From IMG/VR virus record IMGVR_UViG_3300042894_005670: a DNA stretch of 64,000 nt, one strand, 5' to 3'. This document shows, in pieces, positions 31,019 through 54,067 of the stretch (within the stretch, counting starts at the first letter, position 1; every line of letters starts with the position of its first letter). Below the pieces are notes generated by a model, which saw only the letters and a program-made list of their open reading frames with translations, was not told where the DNA came from and did no database searches. Source of the DNA: a virus. The translations under genes were made by a program, and so were the position numbers.

Positions 31019-31577
31019 TCAACCCATCAACAGGGCGATACCCATAGGTACAATATTTTACTAAACGTTTTGCAGCTTGTGGTTGTAGCGGATAATTCAT
31101 ACGTAAAACTTTATTACGAATATCGCTTGCTGTATGTTCACCGATAACCCAATTTGTGCCATCTGTGCCTATTTGACACACACTAATATCAAAACTATTA
31201 ACTACATCCTGTAAACTATCATAAAAACGTTTAGTGATAATTTGTACAGTCCAATACCGTCTAATCTTTGATTTGGAAACATAAGCGTAAGTTAAAGCAT
31301 TTTCTGTATGATATTTTTCTTGTACAGTAGCCTGAGCATGTAATCTTTGTTTTAACTCTTTTACTTGATTACTATCAACACAAAAAATATCAATATCAGC
31401 TTGATCTATGGGTTTATGTTGATACCATTGTAAACATGACCCACCCGCAATAAAAGGACCTTGTGGTGTGGGACATATTACCCTAACAGGTTCTTGATCA
31501 TCTGCATGAACTAAAGGATAATCCTTCTTAGGTTCTTCAGGTTTACCAAATAAATCATCAAAAGAAAAGCGACTCAT
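30954..31577 (-). CDS. Nucleotidyltransferase-fold protein (CCA/poly(A) polymerase head-like)
   Basis: FIAGG..DIDIF, VQII, FDISVC and RLVKY..YGY. Confidence 0.75.
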   Translation of the reverse strand: MSRFSFDDLFGKPEEPKKDYPLVHADDQEPVRVICPTPQGPFIAGGSCLQWYQHKPIDQADIDIFCVDSNQVKELKQRLHAQATVQEKYHTENALTYAYVSKSKIRRYWTVQIITKRFYDSLQDVVNSFDISVCQIGTDGTNWVIGEHTASDIRNKVLRMNYPLQPQAAKRLVKYCTYGYRPVDGLIENIVQNDISAWKFTSMEEYE

Positions 31578-31792
31578 ACAATTTTTTTATCTTGGAGCAA
31601 AGTTTCAAAAGTGCCAAACAATTGTTCAAATTTTACAGCATAAATTGTTTCCAACCCTAGCAAATAGTTTGAAATTTGATCTTTAGTAAAGTTATCATTT
31701 TCAAGAACTTGCTCGTTTAACAATTTAATTTCATCAGTAATACCCCAACAACCTAAAATTTGTTGCTCTAAGTCAAAACGATCTGCCATCAT
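31574..31792 (-). CDS. Hypothetical protein
   Basis: DRFDLEQQIL.CW motif. Confidence 0.6.
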   Translation of the reverse strand: MMADRFDLEQQILGCWGITDEIKLLNEQVLENDNFTKDQISNYLLGLETIYAVKFEQLFGTFETLLQDKKIV

Positions 31793-32063
31793 ATTCTCCT
31801 ATACCAAAACGTTGTTGTATAACTTGTTTTACTGCAATAAGTGCTGCGTTCCAACTTGGTGTATCGTAGGGGTCACCATCAGTGCCAACTCCACTATAAC
31901 CACGCAAATCATCGCATACATTGAAACATTCTGCAAGCACTAATTCAGTTAAATTCATTAAATCTGCTAATGCAGGTTCACTATGTACACCATATTTTGG
32001 GCTAGCATATTCTGTACGCAAAACGTTAGCCTGTCTAGCAATTTCAATAATTTTACTGTTCAT
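31773..32063 (-). CDS. MNERIKELA-family small protein, copy 5 (diverged)
   Basis: MNSKIIEIARQA..LTELVLAEC..IQQRFGIGE. Confidence 0.7.
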   Translation of the reverse strand: MNSKIIEIARQANVLRTEYASPKYGVHSEPALADLMNLTELVLAECFNVCDDLRGYSGVGTDGDPYDTPSWNAALIAVKQVIQQRFGIGEYDGRSF

Positions 32064-32305
32064 TAATTTACGCTCATGTTCCTACTACAATTTTTACCAC
32101 AATTTTCTGTCCAATTAGTTGATCCTTGGCAATTAGTAAAATAACGATAATTTCCACCATCAACAAATCTATATACAGTGCATCCATCATGAGTAAACAA
32201 TTTGTCCACTTTAAAGTCTACACCTGCTGCAGTAGTTGACTCAGGTTGTTTTGCACTACAAGAAATTAAAGTAAGCATTGCCAAAAATATAAGAAGGTAC
32301 CTCAT
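32063..32305 (-). CDS. Small lipoprotein
   Basis: Lipobox LISC; VDKLFTHDGCTVYRF.D. Confidence 0.7.
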   Translation of the reverse strand: MRYLLIFLAMLTLISCSAKQPESTTAAGVDFKVDKLFTHDGCTVYRFVDGGNYRYFTNCQGSTNWTENCGKNCSRNMSVN

Positions 32306-32541
32306 TTTTCAATCCCAAAGTGTTTTAATATAATACGTTCACATCTTTTATATAATGCTTGATCCACTTTATATTCAATATCGCTTTCATAAAGGTTGGG
32401 TTCTAATGATAGTAAGCATTCTTGTATAATGAGATCAGCAAACTTTTCTATAGCCTTGTGATCATAGTCATCCATACTATCCCAACAACCTTGTGCTGTC
32501 AGTCCTGCACGATACATTAGATCCTCAAGGCGACTATTCAT
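32302..32541 (-). CDS. MNERIKELA-family small protein, copy 4
   Basis: EKFADLIIQEC..ILKHFGIEK. Confidence 0.7.
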   Translation of the reverse strand: MNSRLEDLMYRAGLTAQGCWDSMDDYDHKAIEKFADLIIQECLLSLEPNLYESDIEYKVDQALYKRCERIILKHFGIEK

Positions 32542-32762
32542 TCTTCAACTCCGAAATGTTCTCTAATTTCTTCGTAAATATCTAATGCCTCGTGATCGGC
32601 TGCAACATTGGCACATTCCTTCACAATCAACTCGGCGAACTTTTCTGTCCATTCATGAAGGAAAGTAAAATCTACCTCTCCACCATCATCAACAAAACTA
32701 CCAAATTTTTCTTTGGTGTCATCCCAAGCCTGTTCAGCAAGTTCTTTAATTCGTTCGTTCAT
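32538..32762 (-). CDS. MNERIKELA-family small protein, copy 3
   Basis: MNERIKELAEQA..EKFAELIVKEC..IREHFGVEE. Confidence 0.75.
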   Translation of the reverse strand: MNERIKELAEQAWDDTKEKFGSFVDDGGEVDFTFLHEWTEKFAELIVKECANVAADHEALDIYEEIREHFGVEE

Positions 32763-32772
32763 TCTTCTAATC

Positions 32773-32856
32773 CTAATTCTTTTGCCAGCCCCAAACAAAA
32801 CCAGTGACAAAACCTATCACATAACAGGCCAGCAATGCCAAACCAATCTCGTTCAT
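32773..32856 (-). CDS. Small membrane peptide (27 aa)
   Basis: Not in track: MNEIGLALLACYVIGFVTGFVWGWQKN. Confidence 0.5.
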   Translation of the reverse strand: MNEIGLALLACYVIGFVTGFVWGWQKN

Positions 32857-33017
32857 TCTTTAACTCCTTGAACCATTTCATCCAATTCTTTTGCCAAGTC
32901 ATTCATACGATAGCGACCTTCTATCTTGGAACCGATGTAGCGATTATCATAGTAATCACCGTTTTGGCGTTCACGCTCGTCTAAATACTCTTCTAACACT
33001 TCAGTAAACTTTCTCAT
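32853..33017 (-). CDS. Small hypothetical protein (54 aa)
   Basis: Not in track: MRKFTEVLEEYLDERERQ...LDEMVQGVKE; ATGA-coupled on both sides. Confidence 0.6.
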   Translation of the reverse strand: MRKFTEVLEEYLDERERQNGDYYDNRYIGSKIEGRYRMNDLAKELDEMVQGVKE

Positions 33018-33262
33018 TCTTCAACTCCGAAATGTTCTTTTAGACCTTGAATATTATCATAACACTTTTCAGCACAAATTTCAAAATTTGATTGAAAAAC
33101 AGGATCTTCTTCTGATTCAGAAAGACCAAACAATCTTTCTGCTTCATTGTCGAGATATTGGCAACATTCTCTGACAATCAACTCGGCGAACTTTTCCGGG
33201 ATAATAAACCCATGCTCTGGATCATAACATTGTTCAGCAAGTTCTTTAATTCTCTTGTTCAT
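33014..33262 (-). CDS. MNERIKELA-family small protein, copy 2
   Basis: MNKRIKELAEQC..EKFAELIVREC..LKEHFGVEE. Confidence 0.75.
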   Translation of the reverse strand: MNKRIKELAEQCYDPEHGFIIPEKFAELIVRECCQYLDNEAERLFGLSESEEDPVFQSNFEICAEKCYDNIQGLKEHFGVEE

Positions 33263-33357
33263 TATACTTTCCTATTAAGGACAAACCCTTTAAAGTAGAT
33301 AAAAAAAGCTTTAGCTACATGCTTCATTTGACGTAAATAATATTGACGGTATGACAT
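33262..33357 (-). CDS. Small peptide (31 aa)
   Basis: Not in track: MSYRQYYLRQMKHVAKAFFIYFKGFVLNRKV; TAATG coupling at both ends. Confidence 0.5.
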   Translation of the reverse strand: MSYRQYYLRQMKHVAKAFFIYFKGFVLNRKV

Positions 33358-33551
33358 TATTCCATTCCAAAATGTTCTTTAATGGCTCGTGCAGTGGCAC
33401 TATCACCATTAAACACTGCAAGTTTAATACATTCAAAAAGAATTAAATTAGCAAATTGCTCTAGATCGGGTTGTGCAAATGGAATCTCAAAGCCTAACCT
33501 GTCATACTTTCTTGTCGCCTGTTCAGCTAATAACTTAATTTGTTCATTCAT
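33357..33551 (-). CDS. MNERIKELA-family small protein, copy 1
   Basis: MNEQIKLLAEQA..EQFANLILFEC..IKEHFGME. Confidence 0.75.
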   Translation of the reverse strand: MNEQIKLLAEQATRKYDRLGFEIPFAQPDLEQFANLILFECIKLAVFNGDSATARAIKEHFGME

Positions 33552-33631
33552 TGAATTATTCCTGTCAAGAACATAATTACAGTAGCAACAAAAATTAAGA
33601 TCATACCAATACCAACTATAACATCAGGCAT
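33548..33631 (-). CDS. Small membrane peptide (27 aa)
   Basis: Not in track: MPDVIVGIGMILIFVATVIMFLTGIIQ. Confidence 0.45.
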   Translation of the reverse strand: MPDVIVGIGMILIFVATVIMFLTGIIQ

Positions 33632-33653
33632 AAGCGATTCATTCTTAAGAATA

Positions 33654-33860
33654 TTACTTAACATCTTTCGCAATTTGGGCAAGTTGTTTTAAATCATCAT
33701 ATGTAGTTTGACAATCATACAAAAACCACAGGATATCTGTCAACGGTTTTTTTTGATCAATCATATCCTGTAGCATATCTACTGTTCGTACATGCTGTCC
33801 AAACATTGTTCCACCTGAGTACATTTTACATGCTCCAATAAAGTTCACTTGAAGGATCAC
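33654..33860 (-). CDS. Hypothetical protein
   Basis: ORF track; true start probably downstream. Confidence 0.45.
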   Translation of the reverse strand: MILQVNFIGACKMYSGGTMFGQHVRTVDMLQDMIDQKKPLTDILWFLYDCQTTYDDLKQLAQIAKDVK

Positions 33861-34152
33861 AACAACGTGGCGTATCTGCAGGAATCACAACTTTTTCACC
33901 TGTCATGTAGTTTTTAACAGTCTTCATTTCTTCAGTGGGTATTTCAACTTTTTCTACCTTCATCATCTTAAGGTAAGAATCGGAAGCACACATCATAATA
34001 GTGTTGGACTTCCCCATAATTTCAATAATTATCCAAGGGGTCATTGCACCATCACCTGCAGGGGCAAGGAAGATTTTTTTGATAGTACCGAGAAGGTTAC
34101 CTGCTGCAGAAACCCAAGTAATTGTGTCAGCTACGTTCAAGTTCATTTCCAT
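33826..34152 (-). CDS. Hypothetical early protein
   Basis: Start after AAGGAG and promoter; C-terminal VKNYMTG..TPRCCDPSSELYWSM. Confidence 0.65.
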   Translation of the reverse strand: MEMNLNVADTITWVSAAGNLLGTIKKIFLAPAGDGAMTPWIIIEIMGKSNTIMMCASDSYLKMMKVEKVEIPTEEMKTVKNYMTGEKVVIPADTPRCCDPSSELYWSM

Positions 34153-45543: not shown

Positions 45544-46245
45544 TTATCCAAAACCAAACGTGCCATAGTGTTTAGAACGTGCATAGGCAGCTATTAAAAC
45601 TTTACCGCCAATCTTACGCCATTCATTACAAAAATGATAATCTTCAGATAGTAAATTATAATCAATACTTGTTTGAAAAAATCCGTATGTTAATCGACCT
45701 GTATATTCACCCCAATTACCTATATAAGTTGGAGTATGCGGTTTTAACTTTTCAAACACATTACGTTTGATAAGCATATATCCCGTACCTGCATGAATAG
45801 CTTCTTTCAAACGATCAGGTTCATTGTCTAATTGGGGATCCTCGCCAGGGGCTGCATTAAATATATACCAAGTACTATAAAATGGTAATTTTTCAGGTGG
45901 CTCCCCGTTTCGTACAGCATGATGTACCCATTCCCAATTAATAATTTTTGATGGATAACATCCACAAATCAAATCTACATCCTCATTAATCATACGAATT
46001 ACATCAGGTGGATTGATGATTACGTCAGCGTCTAAAAATAATAAATGAGTACAATCACTTAATAAAAAATCTGATACTAAATTATCTCTAGCACGTGTGA
46101 TTAACGATTGATCATACGTAAAATGATATTCTAATTTCCACTTTTTCTTTCTAAATTCTTCAATTAATTTAATTAATGCATCAGCAAATAACCCATGACA
46201 TTGTCCACCATACATGGGTGTTGCAAGAAAAACTTTTGGCTTCAT
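45544..46245 (-). CDS. Glycosyltransferase-like (GT-A) protein
   Basis: ATPMYGG, SLITRARD, FLDAD, GTGYMLI and LSEDYHFC. Confidence 0.8.
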   Translation of the reverse strand: MKPKVFLATPMYGGQCHGLFADALIKLIEEFRKKKWKLEYHFTYDQSLITRARDNLVSDFLLSDCTHLLFLDADVIINPPDVIRMINEDVDLICGCYPSKIINWEWVHHAVRNGEPPEKLPFYSTWYIFNAAPGEDPQLDNEPDRLKEAIHAGTGYMLIKRNVFEKLKPHTPTYIGNWGEYTGRLTYGFFQTSIDYNLLSEDYHFCNEWRKIGGKVLIAAYARSKHYGTFGFG

Positions 46246-46289: not shown

Positions 46290-46496
46290 TTAATTATTTT
46301 TAATTAAATCATCCAAATATGCTCTTGCCGCACGATAATGTTCAACTTCAAAATTAAATGTTTTCCATTCGCCACTAGCACATTGTGCAGTAAATGAATA
46401 ACTTCTTAATGGTTGTGCCATAGGTGGTGGTGCCATAGGTGCTTCGTTTGATCCTCCAACTAAACTCATGTTATTATTCTCCTTATGATGAGCCAA
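46290..46496 (-). CDS. Hypothetical protein
   Basis: ORF track; likely start MSLVGG after AAGGAG. Confidence 0.45.
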   Translation of the reverse strand: MAHHKENNNMSLVGGSNEAPMAPPPMAQPLRSYSFTAQCASGEWKTFNFEVEHYRAARAYLDDLIKNN

Positions 46497-48672
46497 AAAA
46501 CTTATTCATCAAAGCTTTTTGTTTTTTAGGTTTTGCCCCAAGTACAGGACTAATATTAGCCACCTTATCAGTGCCACTTAAGTATTTTGGGTTACGCTTG
46601 TCCTCTTTAGTATAACGTGGGTCTTTAGGGTCATACTCAGTACCAAATGCACTCTTAACTTGTGACGAATTGAATATGATATAAGACATATCTATATAGT
46701 CAGCTTGTTTTTGCAAATACTGATGCGCTTCTTGTTCAGCTTCTTCAGGTGTATCGCCTTCACCAATAGGTAAAGTAGGCATAACATTATCAGGTAAATA
46801 TGCTACGTATTTTGATCCTTCTTTTTTAATCGTAAAATTAATGCGCTCATCAGGTCGCAATGTTCGCTTACCTTCATTAGTATTACGATATTGTATACCA
46901 TCATATCCCGCATCAAACAATGAACGTGCTAATTCAGCATAGATTGTTGCTTTACAGTCATCCCAATCCATATCACGATCCCTACGAATTGCTTCAAGTT
47001 CGTTATATTCTTTTTGGTTAATAATCTTTTTCTTAAATAAAAAATTCATAACTTGACGTAAATGCTCTTCATCAGGACCAAATATGTCAGGCATAGTAAA
47101 AGGGTTTGTAATCTTTAAAAATACAGGAATTACACGTGCTCCACTATATTTGGCAAACTCATTAGCTGCTTCACGATTGCCAAAATGTATACCAAAATCA
47201 CGATATAAATTTTTAAACGTTGAAAAATCATTAGATGTACCATGATAAACAATCATAGGAGCACCATTACTATCAACTACTTTACTATTGCCAAACCATG
47301 CTCTTAAATTTTCCTCACGACCTTCTACTAATTCTTTTAAAAAACTCATGGACTCTTTGTTGATATTAGGATTAGTTGGGTCAAATGTACCATCATTGTA
47401 AACGGATTTGATTTGCTCAGGGCGTAATGCTATGTACCACGTTTTGGTTCTGCCTTTTATAACGAAGCCATCATTACCGTTTTCTGTAGCCTTTTTAAGA
47501 AGATTACGCACTTGGACGTATCCCTTACTAGAATTAGACATTGACACCCATTTGTCCACGGATATAGAAAGCGGATTTTTAATAGATAAGAAAACGGGGA
47601 TGATGTTGGCACCTTCTTGTTGAGCATACCCGCCAGCATCCGAGGCTGACGTTGAGAAAAAGATGCCTAGATAATCAGTTGCATTTGGCACACTGCTGCC
47701 TTTTGGCGCAGACTTGTCAAACGCTGCAAAGTTTCTGAGCGTACCGTGATACACCACTAACGGATCGCCTCTTTCATCAACCACCTTACTATTACCAAAC
47801 CACTTATTAAAATTATTTTTTCTATCATTACTATCTTCTTTAGTAATGTCAGGTTCATATTTACCAAATGTACCTACATTATATATAGACTTGATTTGAT
47901 ACTGTTCAAATGGACGATAAGTTAAAATAATCGGTGTGCCCTCAGCACCAAGTTCTAACTCTTTTCCATCACGTGGTTCATATTTTTGGGAACCTGCTTC
48001 AAAAACATCTTTTAAAATGACACCATCATATCCCATACCTTGTAGGTAACTTACAATATCTTCACTATCTGCAATAGTATATGTATCTATAACCGTATTG
48101 TCTAGTGCATCCTCAATAGAACTAATATCGTCTGCTTCACCCCATGTGTCAATTTGATCTGAAAGGTCACGAAATCCTTTTATTCTAAAACCATCATCGT
48201 CATAAGCATTGATTGAAAATCTTGCGCCTGTTTTGTATATAATTTCATCTAAATCATATATCATATAGGACACATCTCTCCAACCTAATTTTTTACGTCC
48301 ACCATCAGGTACATTTAGATCACTAGGCACCGTATTAATAAAATCTATTAATGATATTGTTTCGTTATAACGGGTAAGATCTAATGGTTTAACAATTCGT
48401 AAATACGCTGCGATTACAGTAGAACCACTACCATATTGTCTTGTGTCTAAATGTCTAGAGTATACACTAGCTGCTGCAGGGTCATTAGTAAAAGATGGTA
48501 CTGCACGACCTTGAGTTAATTTAAATTCTGTGGCAGCAGGTCGCTTACGTGTACCACGATATACAACAAGTGGGTTGCCATTACTATCAACCACTTTACT
48601 ATTACCAAACCAACTACGAAATGCTTTTGTCTCTCTAGCTTTTTGGTATTCTAATAATTGTCCAATTTTCAT
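46483..48672 (-). CDS. Protein with three tandem ADP-ribosyltransferase-like (ART-PolyVal-type) domains
   Basis: Three WFGNSKVVD..G.P..VY[RH]GT starts, each with [YF]L.I..P, G.DG and Q[IV]KS. Confidence 0.75.
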   Translation of the reverse strand: MKIGQLLEYQKARETKAFRSWFGNSKVVDSNGNPLVVYRGTRKRPAATEFKLTQGRAVPSFTNDPAAASVYSRHLDTRQYGSGSTVIAAYLRIVKPLDLTRYNETISLIDFINTVPSDLNVPDGGRKKLGWRDVSYMIYDLDEIIYKTGARFSINAYDDDGFRIKGFRDLSDQIDTWGEADDISSIEDALDNTVIDTYTIADSEDIVSYLQGMGYDGVILKDVFEAGSQKYEPRDGKELELGAEGTPIILTYRPFEQYQIKSIYNVGTFGKYEPDITKEDSNDRKNNFNKWFGNSKVVDERGDPLVVYHGTLRNFAAFDKSAPKGSSVPNATDYLGIFFSTSASDAGGYAQQEGANIIPVFLSIKNPLSISVDKWVSMSNSSKGYVQVRNLLKKATENGNDGFVIKGRTKTWYIALRPEQIKSVYNDGTFDPTNPNINKESMSFLKELVEGREENLRAWFGNSKVVDSNGAPMIVYHGTSNDFSTFKNLYRDFGIHFGNREAANEFAKYSGARVIPVFLKITNPFTMPDIFGPDEEHLRQVMNFLFKKKIINQKEYNELEAIRRDRDMDWDDCKATIYAELARSLFDAGYDGIQYRNTNEGKRTLRPDERINFTIKKEGSKYVAYLPDNVMPTLPIGEGDTPEEAEQEAHQYLQKQADYIDMSYIIFNSSQVKSAFGTEYDPKDPRYTKEDKRNPKYLSGTDKVANISPVLGAKPKKQKALMNKFFGSS

Positions 48673-49109
48673 CCACGGTCTTTTTTCAATATGCTACGAA
48701 GCATCCATGAATGTTTTGCGTGACTATCAATACGTCCTGCTATAAAATCAGCAATACCTTGCTCATCTTCTGCTTCACATTGATGGAATGTTTCTTTTAA
48801 TAATACAATAATCTTTTGATTATCTTCGTACAATTCTGCCATCATTAACTCAGCACGTGGTATTTGTTGTTGCTCATCAATAATACTTAACTCTTGATAC
48901 CTCGTCATGGATCCTGGTGCATATGAGTCTAACTGTCGAATTATTTCAGCTAGTTGATCAATACTGCCATATACTTCATTATACAAATCACCTAAAAATG
49001 CATGATATTGTGGAAAGTTTGGGCCTTCAATGTTCCAATGAAACCCTGCTGCCTTTATATAAAAAGCAAATGATGTTCCTAACACTTGCTTTAACTTATC
49101 TTTTAACAT
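48669..49109 (-). CDS. dps: Dps/ferritin-like DNA protection protein
   Basis: HWNIEG.NF.QYH, DQLAE and H.K..WML. Confidence 0.93.
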   Translation of the reverse strand: MLKDKLKQVLGTSFAFYIKAAGFHWNIEGPNFPQYHAFLGDLYNEVYGSIDQLAEIIRQLDSYAPGSMTRYQELSIIDEQQQIPRAELMMAELYEDNQKIIVLLKETFHQCEAEDEQGIADFIAGRIDSHAKHSWMLRSILKKDRG

Positions 49110-51555
49110 TCTTTTTACCTTCTAGCATATTCTTTTGTGCTTCGTGACCTTCCATATACTCTGCTACATCTTTTATTAGTTCATCAGCACGTGTAATGTG
49201 GTCGGAGACCCATCCTGGCAAGCCTTGTCCTTCACTTCTACCTTTAATTATCTTAGCAAGTGACATTGAACTTTTTACGGTAGATAATAAACTGTTTACT
49301 GCCATTGATACTTCATGGTCAGGTTCCATATGCTTAGCTTTAACTACATCACCACGCATACGCATTTTACCAGGCATCACTATGAGGTCTTGTTCACTTA
49401 AATCAGCTTCCTTCAATGTGTTAGGTATAGCACCCGTATTGTTTAAGAAAAACTGATCTGTTACACCTGCTTTAATTTTTAAATCTCGCACTTGCTCTCT
49501 ATACTCGTTAATTTCTTCCGCAATAGCACGACCTAATATTTGACCAATTTGTTCAGGTGTTGCAGGTACATCAGGTCCTGTACCACCAAATTTTGTATTT
49601 ACTAACCTAGGGAAGTAATTTCTAACAACACTAGCTAAACGATTAACTGTTTCACTCGTTAAAGCTTTGTATTGTTGTATATAATTATCATATGAAATAT
49701 TGTTAGCTAATGCTTTACCACCTGCGGCTATCGCTGCACCTGCCGCTGCAGCTTTACCTAAACTTCCTAAAAATCCTCTACGTGCAGGATCAGCTTCATT
49801 GATACTTTCTTCATCAGAAAATTTTGCATCACGTAATGCATCTTCAAAAATTTCATCTAATCCATAAATTGCACTTTCTAATTCATGCTTGGCTTCATAA
49901 ACACGGCTATTATGATAATTAAAATCATCCATGTCTAATGCATAAGCTTTTACTAAATTTTCAATTTCTACCATAATTTCATTTACGGTATTATCGTATG
50001 AAATTCCTTTAGTAATTTTTCTAGCTTGCATTAAGGCACGTTCCAAATCATCTGCACGACCTTCGTTAATGCTTTCGTTCTTAGATTTATTACCCCAATT
50101 CTTTGCACCTGCTTTACGACATTTAACTAATGCACCACTAGCATATGCACTAGGCCAAATTTTGTAACGACTTTTTACCTTATGGTAGCATGCATCTTTT
50201 TTACCTTCAGTAAATAATGCTTCACTGACCATTTCACCATTACATTGTGGGCAAATACCCTCTTTGACATAATACTCAAGACTTTCATTCTTAGTCTTGT
50301 TGCTTACCATATCAGCCGCACCTTGACGTTGTGGGTTTGGATCTTCACGGCGTTTTTTACGTACTGCTGCTGCAATAGCTTTTTTACCACCACTAGCACG
50401 TAATGATGCTGCTTTTTCTTTACTTAGGCATTTTGGTTTACCTTCACCTGCTTTACGTTCTCCACACTTACCAATACGCTCACCTTTAGTATTGTAGCGA
50501 TCCCATCCACCGCCACCTGCACCACCTTCACCGCCTTTACCAAACCATGCACGTAAATCTTCGCTTAATTGTTCAGCAATTTCACTTTCACTGAATTCTT
50601 TGCCAACTAGTTTATCACCTGTAACACCTTGAATTAGTGCCCATGCACGTTGAAATTCTTTTTCTTTAATTAATTGATTTAGGATTTGTTTTTGACGTGG
50701 ATCTGCCATTTTAAAGAATTTAACCATTTCCATTGCACCGATATTACCTTCATAACCTAGTTCCATCAATGCTTCTTCATTAGTATGAGATTGGTATTCA
50801 TCATAATCCATATACATATCGGTATCACGATCATAATACTTACCTTCTTTAGGATCGTAATAAACAATCTTACCTGATTTTAAACGAAATGGTCCTTCTA
50901 ACCCTTGGTCTGACATATCTGTATAACGTTCTTTATCAATTGGAGTTGATATTTTCCAACCTTCCGCCACACCTTGCGTCTCTGGACCATCCATCCAACT
51001 CTGCGTTAGTTTAATCATATCTAACGGAATGCGTTTTTTATCGTGAATTTCCATTGCCTTCAATCTTGCGGATTCTTGTGATGGGAACGGAATGGCATCA
51101 AACTTCTTATCTCTAAGAACTTTACCTTTAACTCTTACATACCAGTTTTCAGAGCCTTCCGCCACACCTTCTTTCCTAATACCAAGTGTACTCGCAGGAT
51201 TACCTCCACCAAACATACTAGCAAATGCATCACTTGCTTGTTGTTTAGTATCTGCTTTTTGTTGTTTTTTTACTGATTTTTTACTCGTAACCTTTTTAAG
51301 CATTGTTTTAAACTTATCACCATCCGTTGTTGGATTAGTAGCTTCTGCCACCGTCTTTTTCTTTTTGCTACCTGCCCAATTACCCCACTCTGAAGCACTG
51401 CGCTCTACACTATTCATGTATTTTTTACCACTATCTGCAGTCTCATCCGTTTTTTCACGTTTTACTGTTTCTTTGAATAATGGTGTGGCAACAGTAGCAA
51501 CTGAACCTGCTGTCATTTCATTAATTTTATCTAAGGTTTTACGAATATCTGACAT
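49096..51555 (-). CDS. Modular 819-aa protein; putative processed internal-head polyprotein
   Basis: About 10 unrelated short modules separated by VAE/INE/LSE/LKE-type linkers; ATAAATA box upstream. Confidence 0.6.
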   Translation of the reverse strand: MSDIRKTLDKINEMTAGSVATVATPLFKETVKREKTDETADSGKKYMNSVERSASEWGNWAGSKKKKTVAEATNPTTDGDKFKTMLKKVTSKKSVKKQQKADTKQQASDAFASMFGGGNPASTLGIRKEGVAEGSENWYVRVKGKVLRDKKFDAIPFPSQESARLKAMEIHDKKRIPLDMIKLTQSWMDGPETQGVAEGWKISTPIDKERYTDMSDQGLEGPFRLKSGKIVYYDPKEGKYYDRDTDMYMDYDEYQSHTNEEALMELGYEGNIGAMEMVKFFKMADPRQKQILNQLIKEKEFQRAWALIQGVTGDKLVGKEFSESEIAEQLSEDLRAWFGKGGEGGAGGGGWDRYNTKGERIGKCGERKAGEGKPKCLSKEKAASLRASGGKKAIAAAVRKKRREDPNPQRQGAADMVSNKTKNESLEYYVKEGICPQCNGEMVSEALFTEGKKDACYHKVKSRYKIWPSAYASGALVKCRKAGAKNWGNKSKNESINEGRADDLERALMQARKITKGISYDNTVNEIMVEIENLVKAYALDMDDFNYHNSRVYEAKHELESAIYGLDEIFEDALRDAKFSDEESINEADPARRGFLGSLGKAAAAGAAIAAGGKALANNISYDNYIQQYKALTSETVNRLASVVRNYFPRLVNTKFGGTGPDVPATPEQIGQILGRAIAEEINEYREQVRDLKIKAGVTDQFFLNNTGAIPNTLKEADLSEQDLIVMPGKMRMRGDVVKAKHMEPDHEVSMAVNSLLSTVKSSMSLAKIIKGRSEGQGLPGWVSDHITRADELIKDVAEYMEGHEAQKNMLEGKKNVKR
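50960..51170. repeat. 16-bp direct repeat CCTTCCGCCACACCTT (50960-50975 and 51155-51170) bounding a 65-codon module
   Basis: Exact repeat; both copies encode GVAEG. Confidence 0.9.
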
Positions 51556-53077: not shown

Positions 53078-54067
53078 TTACTTCTTCTCAGAAGTTTCTT
53101 CGGGTTTTTCTAACGCTGCGTGTGTATCTAAAGCAGGGTTAACCGTAGTGGGTTTATAAGGAACAGTTTTAACTGTATCATCTATTACGGTAAGCTTACC
53201 ATTTTGTTCCATGACATTGACAAAGGCAGGTCCGATATTATTGTACAAGTACTCTTGATTTTCCATACAGAATACATAACTTCCACTGTGACGTAATAAT
53301 ACACGTTTATCAACCCAAATACGTCCACCTAAGTCACGCCAATTTTCACACATTGTCCAATCTTCACTATAGTAACGATTTTGACGCACTGCTGTATCAA
53401 AAAATGTCGCCAAGTGTTGATCATAAATTGGGTCTAAACCAATGTCATTCTTATAAGGTTTAACGGCAGGATGTGATTTCATTTTTTCAAATACATGACG
53501 TTTTGTTAGTAAGAAACCTGTACCTGCTTTTGATACTTCTTGTAGTCCATCAGGACCTTCTTCCGCACCTTCAAATCCATTGACAACCCATTTGATAGGC
53601 ATTGTTTTCATTGGGTACAACCCACCAATAACGTCTTTATCACGATTAAGTAATACCAACAAATGCCATGGTTCCCAACCAATATCAGCATCTACAAAGA
53701 ATAAATGTGTTGAATCTTTTTGATGAAGAAATTTTGCAGTTAATGTATTACGTGCACGACTAATCAATGATTCATTAACCATGGTTTCTAATGTCCAATC
53801 AATCCCTAACTGACGTGCAGTGTTAGCGAATTTGATAAAAGACATAAATGTTGATTCAGTTAACATGCCACCATAACATGGCATTGCAATATGTGCTTTT
53901 GTTGTTCTTAAATAATCAACATTTACTTGTACTTGCCCTTGTTGCGGGGCGGCAGCTTTTTTTGCTTCTTCTTCGGAAACAGTACCCCCAATGCTTGCTG
54001 ATTGGCTTGCTTTATCAGCTAATTCTTGGACTGCATCTACGGGAATTTTGGCTTGTTCTGTTGTCAT
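53078..54067 (-). CDS. Glycosyltransferase-like (GT-A) protein, paralog of 45544-46245
   Basis: MPCYGG, SLISRARN, FVDAD, GTGFLL and YSEDW.MC. Confidence 0.8.
   Translation of the reverse strand: MTTEQAKIPVDAVQELADKASQSASIGGTVSEEEAKKAAAPQQGQVQVNVDYLRTTKAHIAMPCYGGMLTESTFMSFIKFANTARQLGIDWTLETMVNESLISRARNTLTAKFLHQKDSTHLFFVDADIGWEPWHLLVLLNRDKDVIGGLYPMKTMPIKWVVNGFEGAEEGPDGLQEVSKAGTGFLLTKRHVFEKMKSHPAVKPYKNDIGLDPIYDQHLATFFDTAVRQNRYYSEDWTMCENWRDLGGRIWVDKRVLLRHSGSYVFCMENQEYLYNNIGPAFVNVMEQNGKLTVIDDTVKTVPYKPTTVNPALDTHAALEKPEETSEKK

Follow-up and report, generated by a model that had tools for sequence, protein, structure and literature searches.

An 18-nucleotide, codon-locked joint borders exchangeable in-frame cassettes in a modular protein gene of a putative giant T4-type freshwater phage

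We report that the gene of a modular protein, P0001, located within a 64-kb stretch of viral DNA (IMG/VR record IMGVR_UViG_3300042894_005670; this whole stretch of 64,000 nucleotides is referred to below as the window), contains a short in-frame element, here called the joint, which codes for the peptide (Q/E)GVAEG, keeps its spelling at silent codon positions, and coincides with the borders of protein cassettes that replace one another between alleles. The explanation that we favour, and hold to be reasonably probable, is that the joint is dual-coded: its DNA would serve as the crossover for in-frame cassette exchange, and its peptide as a flexible linker that is probably cut by a protease. 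A first-pass annotation of the window had proposed that the linker codons double as a recombination site, and in agreement with this, the allele series and the ends of cassette identity described below place the junctions of in-frame cassette exchange at these codons.

The joint was initially recognized as a repeat. The 16-mer CCTTCCGCCACACCTT is present in two exact copies, at 50960-50975 and 51155-51170, spaced by 195 bp. Both copies lie in frame within the minus-strand open reading frame (ORF) 49096-51555, which encodes P0001 (819 amino acids), and on the coding strand each is read as (A)GGT GTG GCG GAA GG, i.e., GVAEG, at residues 130-134 and 195-199. The match coordinates and the reading frame therefore bear out the GVAEG-coding exact repeat of the annotation. 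With up to three mismatches allowed, the window contains three matches to CCTTCCGCCACACCTT as compared to 0.20 expected, and none of 100 shuffles reached this number. The third match, at 53556, has three mismatches, encodes GAEEG in a different protein, and was judged to be due to chance.

The joint is conserved as DNA, and not only as a peptide. The profile of 249 unique sites yields an 18-nt element, CAA GGT GTG GCG GAA GGC, with no conservation in the flanks on either side. In the window background, GTG accounts for 12.5% of valine codons, and GCG for 7.1% of alanine codons. We considered 38 non-duplicate GVAE sites that had been gathered by protein similarity rather than by a DNA pattern. 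At these sites, glycine is encoded by GGT in 36 cases (background 0.55), valine by GTG in 32 (0.13), alanine by GCG in 32 (0.05), and glutamate by GAA in 31 (0.84), while the glycine following GVAE is GGC in 23 of 30 sites (0.24). Overall, GTG constitutes 84-89% of valine codons and GCG 84-89% of alanine codons in the linkers, with backgrounds of 13 and 5%, respectively; two GVAE sites that are not joints have ordinary codons. The same preference is seen within a single gene, L092, where GTG is used at all 11 positions (p = 5e-8) and GCG at 9 of 11 (p = 1e-7).

The exact 14-mer occurs in at least 120 stretches of IMG/VR, and among the matches listed, 85 of 102 belong to a GVAEG reading frame that stays open for 150 codons or more. 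The DNA pattern itself had served to collect some of the sites, which is countered by the protein-found sample above and by a leave-one-out analysis of 64 IMG/VR ORFs among the matches listed: 39 of 64 other GVAE sites were spelled identically, compared to 0.5% expected. As a control, we took 70 diverged loci and considered a peptide of the adjacent module that is itself strongly conserved; the control set comprised 80 metagenome loci found via this neighbouring conserved module, mostly without GVAE joints. The invariant glycine, valine, proline, and leucine columns of the control peptide use three to six codons each, with the top codon having a share of 0.34-0.66. Its free synonymous variation demonstrates that peptide conservation alone leaves silent sites unfixed in these phages. 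Hence, the over-conservation of synonymous positions anticipated by the annotation is seen in the protein-found sites, in the leave-one-out analysis, and against the control peptide, and GVAEG linkers elsewhere do not vary freely at silent positions.

The region between the two joints is a variable slot. Orthologues of P0001 were collected with the N-terminal backbone alone as the query, resulting in 14 orthologue clusters with a DNA identity of 90-98% in the backbone. The slot itself, bordered by the same pair of flanks in every cluster, has eight different contents made from eight unrelated cassettes: A (the window); A-B; A-C; D; E; E-B; B; and F-G and F-H-B. Each cassette supplies its own C-terminal joint, and cassettes A and E recur elsewhere, in either order, at other positions of quite different proteins. 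Alleles without cassette A do exist, having other cassettes in the same slot. An allele with an empty slot, or with the single repeat copy that the annotation had suggested looking for, was found in none of the 14 orthologue clusters.

A second module of the same gene, residues 588-721, is also present in some alleles and absent from others. Alleles without it read G-L-N-E↓Q at this position (here and below, the arrow marks the module boundary or putative cut site), and the homology shared there amounts to just a few bases. The module is flanked by a direct repeat matching at 11 of 12 positions, ATCAGCTTC(C/A)TT, at 49402 and 49789; the hybrid junction G-L-N-E↓Q is not accounted for by this repeat.

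Breakpoints of similarity between cassettes fall at the joints. Cassette E of the orthologues L087, L088, and L091 is 90-93% identical in DNA to a cassette in L092, an unrelated protein of 1413 amino acids from another phage, and a base-by-base comparison shows that the identity runs from the left joint to the right joint, with both flanks at the random level. Cassette A is also present in L092, with a DNA identity of only about 70%. A set of 120 unique joint-bounded modules contains ten pairs with an identity of 85% or more; in nine of these, L109/L206 (97.7%) among them, the sequences are unrelated past one joint or past both. The same picture emerges from community data, i.e., assembled Logan contigs of four lake metagenomes: contig depth increases three- to six-fold at exactly the two joints, and many contigs coincide over the 19-25 nt of the joint only, their sequences differing to its left and right. 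A contig that skips the module was not found in these four metagenomes, assembled contigs being uninformative on rare forms.

The composition of cassette A differs from that of its surroundings. The annotation had noted two words, TCTGG and CCAGT, as scarce in the window yet present within the 195-bp unit, and word counts agree: each occurs just twice in 64 kb (TCTGG at 33216 and 50981, CCAGT at 32801 and 51142), and their complements CCAGA and ACTGG do not occur at all. More generally, CCAG/CTGG is observed 47 times on both strands of the window, with 261 occurrences expected, and 36 of these 47 sites are within CCWGG. Two of the remaining 11 sites are inside the 179-bp cassette body (Poisson P = 5e-4). 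Across ten alleles, eight such avoided sites were found in 3.4 kb of cassette DNA, while the backbone has two in 20.8 kb. None is present in cassettes B, D, F, G, and H or in one copy of cassette E. Judged by word usage, the cassette DNA is compositionally foreign and apparently less adapted to the constraints of the genome.

The annotation had further suggested that cassettes carry their own cleavage site. This finds no support, as the words reflect genome-wide avoidance and nothing ties them to excision; TCTGG and CCAGT are unlikely to be a cleavage device because most cassettes have none. As for the view that cassette A was recently acquired, its foreign composition stands but its recency holds in a relative sense only: the orthologous copy of cassette A in L085 (94% identical) contains both avoided words, and L001 contains one of them, so that the cassette was already in place when these alleles diverged.

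Other words are avoided in the window as well, e.g., CGCG (0 observed, 58 expected), CCGG (2 and 34), GGCC (32 and 88), CAGCTG (0 and 12), TGCGCA (0 and 19), GATGTC/GACATC (1 and 15), and GCAGGC/GCCTGC (2 and 18), while CCWGG is tolerated with 36 sites. Such a pattern resembles the evasion of several restriction specificities. At 32785-33216, four of the 11 non-CCWGG CCAG/CTGG sites lie close together, within a run of small minus-strand ORFs (40-96 amino acids) at 31500-33900. No tRNA genes were found in this stretch, which is probably a hyperplastic region of recently acquired small genes.

The window has a GC content of approximately 35%, and nearly all long ORFs are located on the minus strand. 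Its genes encode DNA polymerase, primase, helicases, ribonucleotide reductase, and exonucleases, i.e., functions of replication and nucleotide metabolism, and its sequence is present in lake-water metagenomes of many studies. Two relatives were informative. The orthologous contig G001 (137 kb, rated 39% complete) has a polymerase 88% identical to that of the window. In G002 (354 kb, 98% complete), the DNA polymerase is 59% identical and is located roughly 7-9 kb from the joint-bearing gene, a distance similar to that in the window. In the record of each relative, the joint is confined to one kind of gene. G002 encodes a Peptidase_S77 prohead protease and a T4-type Gp23 capsid protein; neither was matched in G001, a contig rated 39% complete. 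Given the lake metagenome occurrence and the size, capsid protein, and Peptidase_S77 of G002, the source is best described as an uncultured giant T4-type freshwater phage.

The neighbours of the P0001 gene, both in the window and at orthologous loci, encode a nucleotidyltransferase/DUF5661 protein, a ferritin-like protein, and an ADP-ribosyltransferase-domain (ART-PolyVal) protein. When compared to G001, the ART-PolyVal protein is a mosaic, its residues 1-283 being 97% identical and residues 285-729 only 80%. Two paralogous genes (phrog_1574, with weak Anp1-like matches), at 45544-46245 and 53078-54067, bracket the cluster of the modular gene and the ART-PolyVal gene. Coordinates of the features are collected in Table 1.

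Table 1. Features of the joint-bearing gene and its neighbourhood in the window
Feature	Coordinates	Strand	Basis or remark
Gene for modular protein P0001, 819 amino acids	49096..51555	-	ORF and translation; small modules, disordered joints
Possible capsid-targeting leader with cut site, 13 N-terminal residues ending I-N-E (orthologues L-N-E)	51517..51555	-	Suggested by the residues and by orthologues
Linker copy 1, GAA GGT GTG GCG GAA GGC = EGVAEG, residues 129-134	51154..51171	-	Holds repeat 51155-51170
Cassette A body, residues 135-193 (59 residues)	50977..51153	-	Small alpha/beta domain, autonomous (model)
Linker copy 2, CAA GGT GTG GCG GAA GGT = QGVAEG, residues 194-199	50959..50976	-	Holds repeat 50960-50975
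CCAGT in cassette A, second avoided word	51142..51146	+	Word count
TCTGG in cassette A, one of 11 non-CCWGG CCAG/CTGG sites	50981..50985	+	Word count
Second present/absent module, residues 588-721, bounds S-I-N-E↓A and D-L-S-E↓Q	49393..49794	-	Allele comparison
Ferritin-like protein, 146 amino acids, downstream neighbour of the P0001 gene	48669..49109	-	Pfam PF00210, E = 4e-23
ART-PolyVal ADP-ribosyltransferase-domain protein, 729 amino acids, second gene downstream, past the ferritin-like gene	46483..48672	-	Pfam PF18760, E = 1.4e-58

On the protein level, P0001 yields nothing above the Pfam cut-off, and its PHROG matches are to families of unknown function only. In an AlphaFold model of the 70-residue cassette A unit (ten homologous copies), the predicted local distance difference test (pLDDT) score is 83-92 in the core and below 50 at both joints, so that cassette A is modelled as an independent small alpha/beta domain, both ends of which are loose. 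Fold searches with it gave no significant match (best E = 0.56 in Foldseek vs. the Protein Data Bank; best Z = 4.9 in the wide VIA-align search). For a tentative lead towards an integrase Arm/AP2-like DNA-binding domain (ESM Atlas features, 0.91, few shared), the confident model gave no significant match, which does not exclude any fold. The model of the whole P0001 has a mean pLDDT of 38 and is too poor for use, residues 150-180 being among its few ordered parts. Elsewhere in the protein, residues ~449-502 (50050-50211) form a small Cys/Trp-containing domain common to hundreds of marine cyanophage proteins, with ~80% DNA identity to Synechococcus phage S-RIM2 and the label 'structural protein' in some records. 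Matches in cultured phages were short and confined to this domain; no relative of the slot was found among them.

The joint peptide reads V-A-E↓G, i.e., aliphatic-Ala-Glu followed by glycine, and at other module boundaries the residues are I-N-E↓G, I-N-E↓A, and L-S-E↓Q. Cleavage by gp21 of T4 takes place after L/I-X-E, and that by related giant-phage proteases after S/A-X-E (PMC9026906). In G002, the scaffold protein contains six (L/I/V)-A-E sites as compared to 1.45 expected (P = 0.003), and the capsid protein has M-L-A-E↓N at residue 40. As the window is devoid of head genes, the protease had to be taken from this relative, and on that basis the joint peptide is probably a T4-type head-protease site. 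In all P0001 orthologues, the first 13 residues end in I/L-N-E. Many other joint-bearing proteins (P0017, P0069-P0072, P0081-P0089, P0098, P0100, and others) begin with a short leader of the type M-F-I-x-D-L-F-E/N, which may be a shared capsid-targeting leader. With proteolysis and packaging assumed, these features and the ART-PolyVal gene two positions downstream are consistent with P0001 being a string of cargo modules that are separated by cleavage inside the head.

According to the explanation that we favour, the joint (C/G)AA GGT GTG GCG GAA GG(C/T), coding for (Q/E)GVAEG, would string autonomous small modules into one long protein. During co-infection, or when fragments with a joint at each end are present, short-homology recombination between joints would insert, replace, reorder, or delete whole cassettes with the frame kept. 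Joints of consensus spelling would keep the cassettes transferable, and conversion in the course of exchange would also hold the silent positions fixed. A T4-type head protease would then cut the joint, freeing the modules as separate small capsid proteins for injection. The data show the cassette allele series, the breakpoints at the joints, and the codon lock, whereas DNA identity as the cause of exchange, the recombination pathway, the proteolysis, and the packaging are inferred.

Several points weigh against this explanation. Firstly, a recombination event was not directly observed, and neither an empty-slot allele, nor a deletion joint, nor a circle was found in the 14 clusters or the assembled contigs; close alleles could have exchanged cassettes through the long homology of their backbones instead of the joints. 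Secondly, 18 nt is short for homology-driven exchange, and no joint-specific enzyme was identified. Thirdly, valine at P3 is outside the published L/I-X-E motif of T4, and the gene is situated among genes of replication and nucleotide metabolism, not among head genes.

The shortness of the joint is one reason to consider a dedicated nuclease, recombinase, or homing-type enzyme that would recognize it as an intragenic att-like site, in place of general short-homology recombination. Such an enzyme would suit an element that is sharply bounded at 18 nt, is retained between phages with a polymerase identity of no more than 59%, and occurs in one gene per genome only. We nevertheless consider it unlikely: no recombinase or homing nuclease adjoins the gene, here or at orthologous loci, and the second slot of the same gene varies without this joint. 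Structure is also lacking in the joint: no inverted repeat or palindrome was found at the joints, and a stem-loop was rejected after joints with their flanks were shown to fold no better than shuffles (z = 0.29 and -0.64).

Doubtful, too, is an in-frame analogue of integrons, in which modules would be moved between cargo polyprotein genes of different phages either by an enzyme recognizing the 18-mer or as encapsidated mini-circles, each made of one cassette and one joint, and the same six residues would later be cut by the protease. If this were true, selection would act on one sequence twice, as DNA and as protein, with a different cut in each case.

Alternatively, the constraint could reside in the protein and its translation only, GVAEG being a protease site or a linker, rare GTG and GCG codons slowing the ribosome for co-translational folding, and the junctions simply representing viable domain boundaries. 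GTG and GCG are indeed rare here, the joints are the disordered ends of a folded domain, and selection would purge chimeras broken outside the boundaries. However, GGT and GAA, the commonest codons, are equally fixed in the joint, while other rare synonyms (GTC, GCC) are not used. Furthermore, the spelling is constant in ORFs of 37-47% GC on loci of ~30-50% GC, likely in different hosts. Variant joints retain GGT GTG ... GAA GG when the middle codon is altered to encode another amino acid (GAG, GTG, GGG), so that the adjoining silent positions stay fixed. Finally, the DNA identity of cassettes ends within the joint, not at varied points near the boundary. Hence, a constraint of this kind, acting alone, is improbable.

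A trivial explanation, i.e., a repeat due to chance, a leftover of tandem duplication at this locus, or chimeric assembly over a shared k-mer, is hardly credible even though the joint is a repeated community word and a branching point in assembly graphs: chance is excluded by the mismatch scan against shuffles, and duplication by the unrelated sequences on the two sides of each joint, whereas chimeric assembly is contradicted by the length of the shared word (16-19 nt, below the usual assembly k), by contigs of two independent studies spanning the joint-cassette-joint arrangement as in the window, and by the recurrence of the same alleles on several contigs.

If the spelling is kept because modules recombine in frame, the joint would be a clear natural case of selection for evolvability acting at silent sites, and it would account for the way in which large phages build up and refresh their repertoires of small proteins, which are probably injected. 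For the construction of cargo proteins with several interchangeable modules in T4-type phages, the joint offers a design rule taken from nature. The window contributes to this a single-slot allele series, with eight contents on one backbone, and an independent compositional marker of the outside origin of the cassettes, namely, the avoided CCAG/CTGG words. A literature search found no publication on a codon-locked joint, no relevant paper on GVAEG, and none on polyvalent-protein linkers or head polyproteins describing such an element.

Several known systems resemble the joint in part. Polyvalent proteins, as described by Iyer, Burroughs, Aravind and co-workers in 2017, are reportedly long multi-module proteins of phages and conjugative elements, thought to be delivered together with DNA. 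P0001 is likewise a long multi-module protein, and an ART-PolyVal gene is located two positions downstream of its gene. On the other hand, P0001 has no Pfam domain, and the ART-PolyVal domain is encoded by a separate gene, in contrast to effector domains combined in one polypeptide; a uniform codon-locked linker is not part of the description of polyvalent proteins, as far as the literature was found. Integrons move whole genes, outside reading frames, by means of structured attC sites and an integrase. The likeness is in the array of exchangeable cassettes split by a recurring junction sequence; at the joint, however, palindromes are absent, no integrase gene lies in the vicinity, and the cassettes keep to the reading frame.

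Closer parallels come from T4-type phages. PeSL cassettes are intergenic units of a promoter and a terminator stem-loop, and their recombination results in modular shuffling, i.e., insertion, deletion, and replacement between close relatives, as well as in mini-circles (Arbiol et al., 2010, PMC2839356; Comeau et al., 2014, PMC4122927). As with the joint, short conserved sequences flank variable units, which is the same logic as that proposed in the first-pass annotation. But PeSLs move whole genes, whereas the joint is an 18-nt element without a stem-loop, in frame within an ORF, that codes for a peptide and moves protein modules. In the gp38 adhesins encoded by T-even adhesin/tail-fibre genes, exchanges occur near conserved glycine-rich motifs (Trojet et al., 2011, PMC3157838). 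These motifs form the structural core of one domain, with its segments being loops, whereas the joints are disordered linkers between unrelated autonomous domains and have identical silent-site spelling across distant phages and unrelated genes. The internal proteins IPI-III and Alt of T4 have a capsid-targeting leader and are processed by gp21 (Peptidase_S77), and the leader may admit diverse proteins to the capsid (PMC9026906). Variable cargo and processing after an aliphatic-X-Glu motif would be features common to them and to P0001 if the joint is cut as proposed, and the relative G002 has Peptidase_S77. At that, each T4 cargo has a separate gene and leader, while here there is one chain with an internal, repeated putative site, and P3 is valine, not leucine or isoleucine. 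Thus, an 18-nt, unstructured, in-frame element common to unrelated genes and distant phages sets the joint apart from PeSLs, gp38 motifs, and T4 internal proteins.

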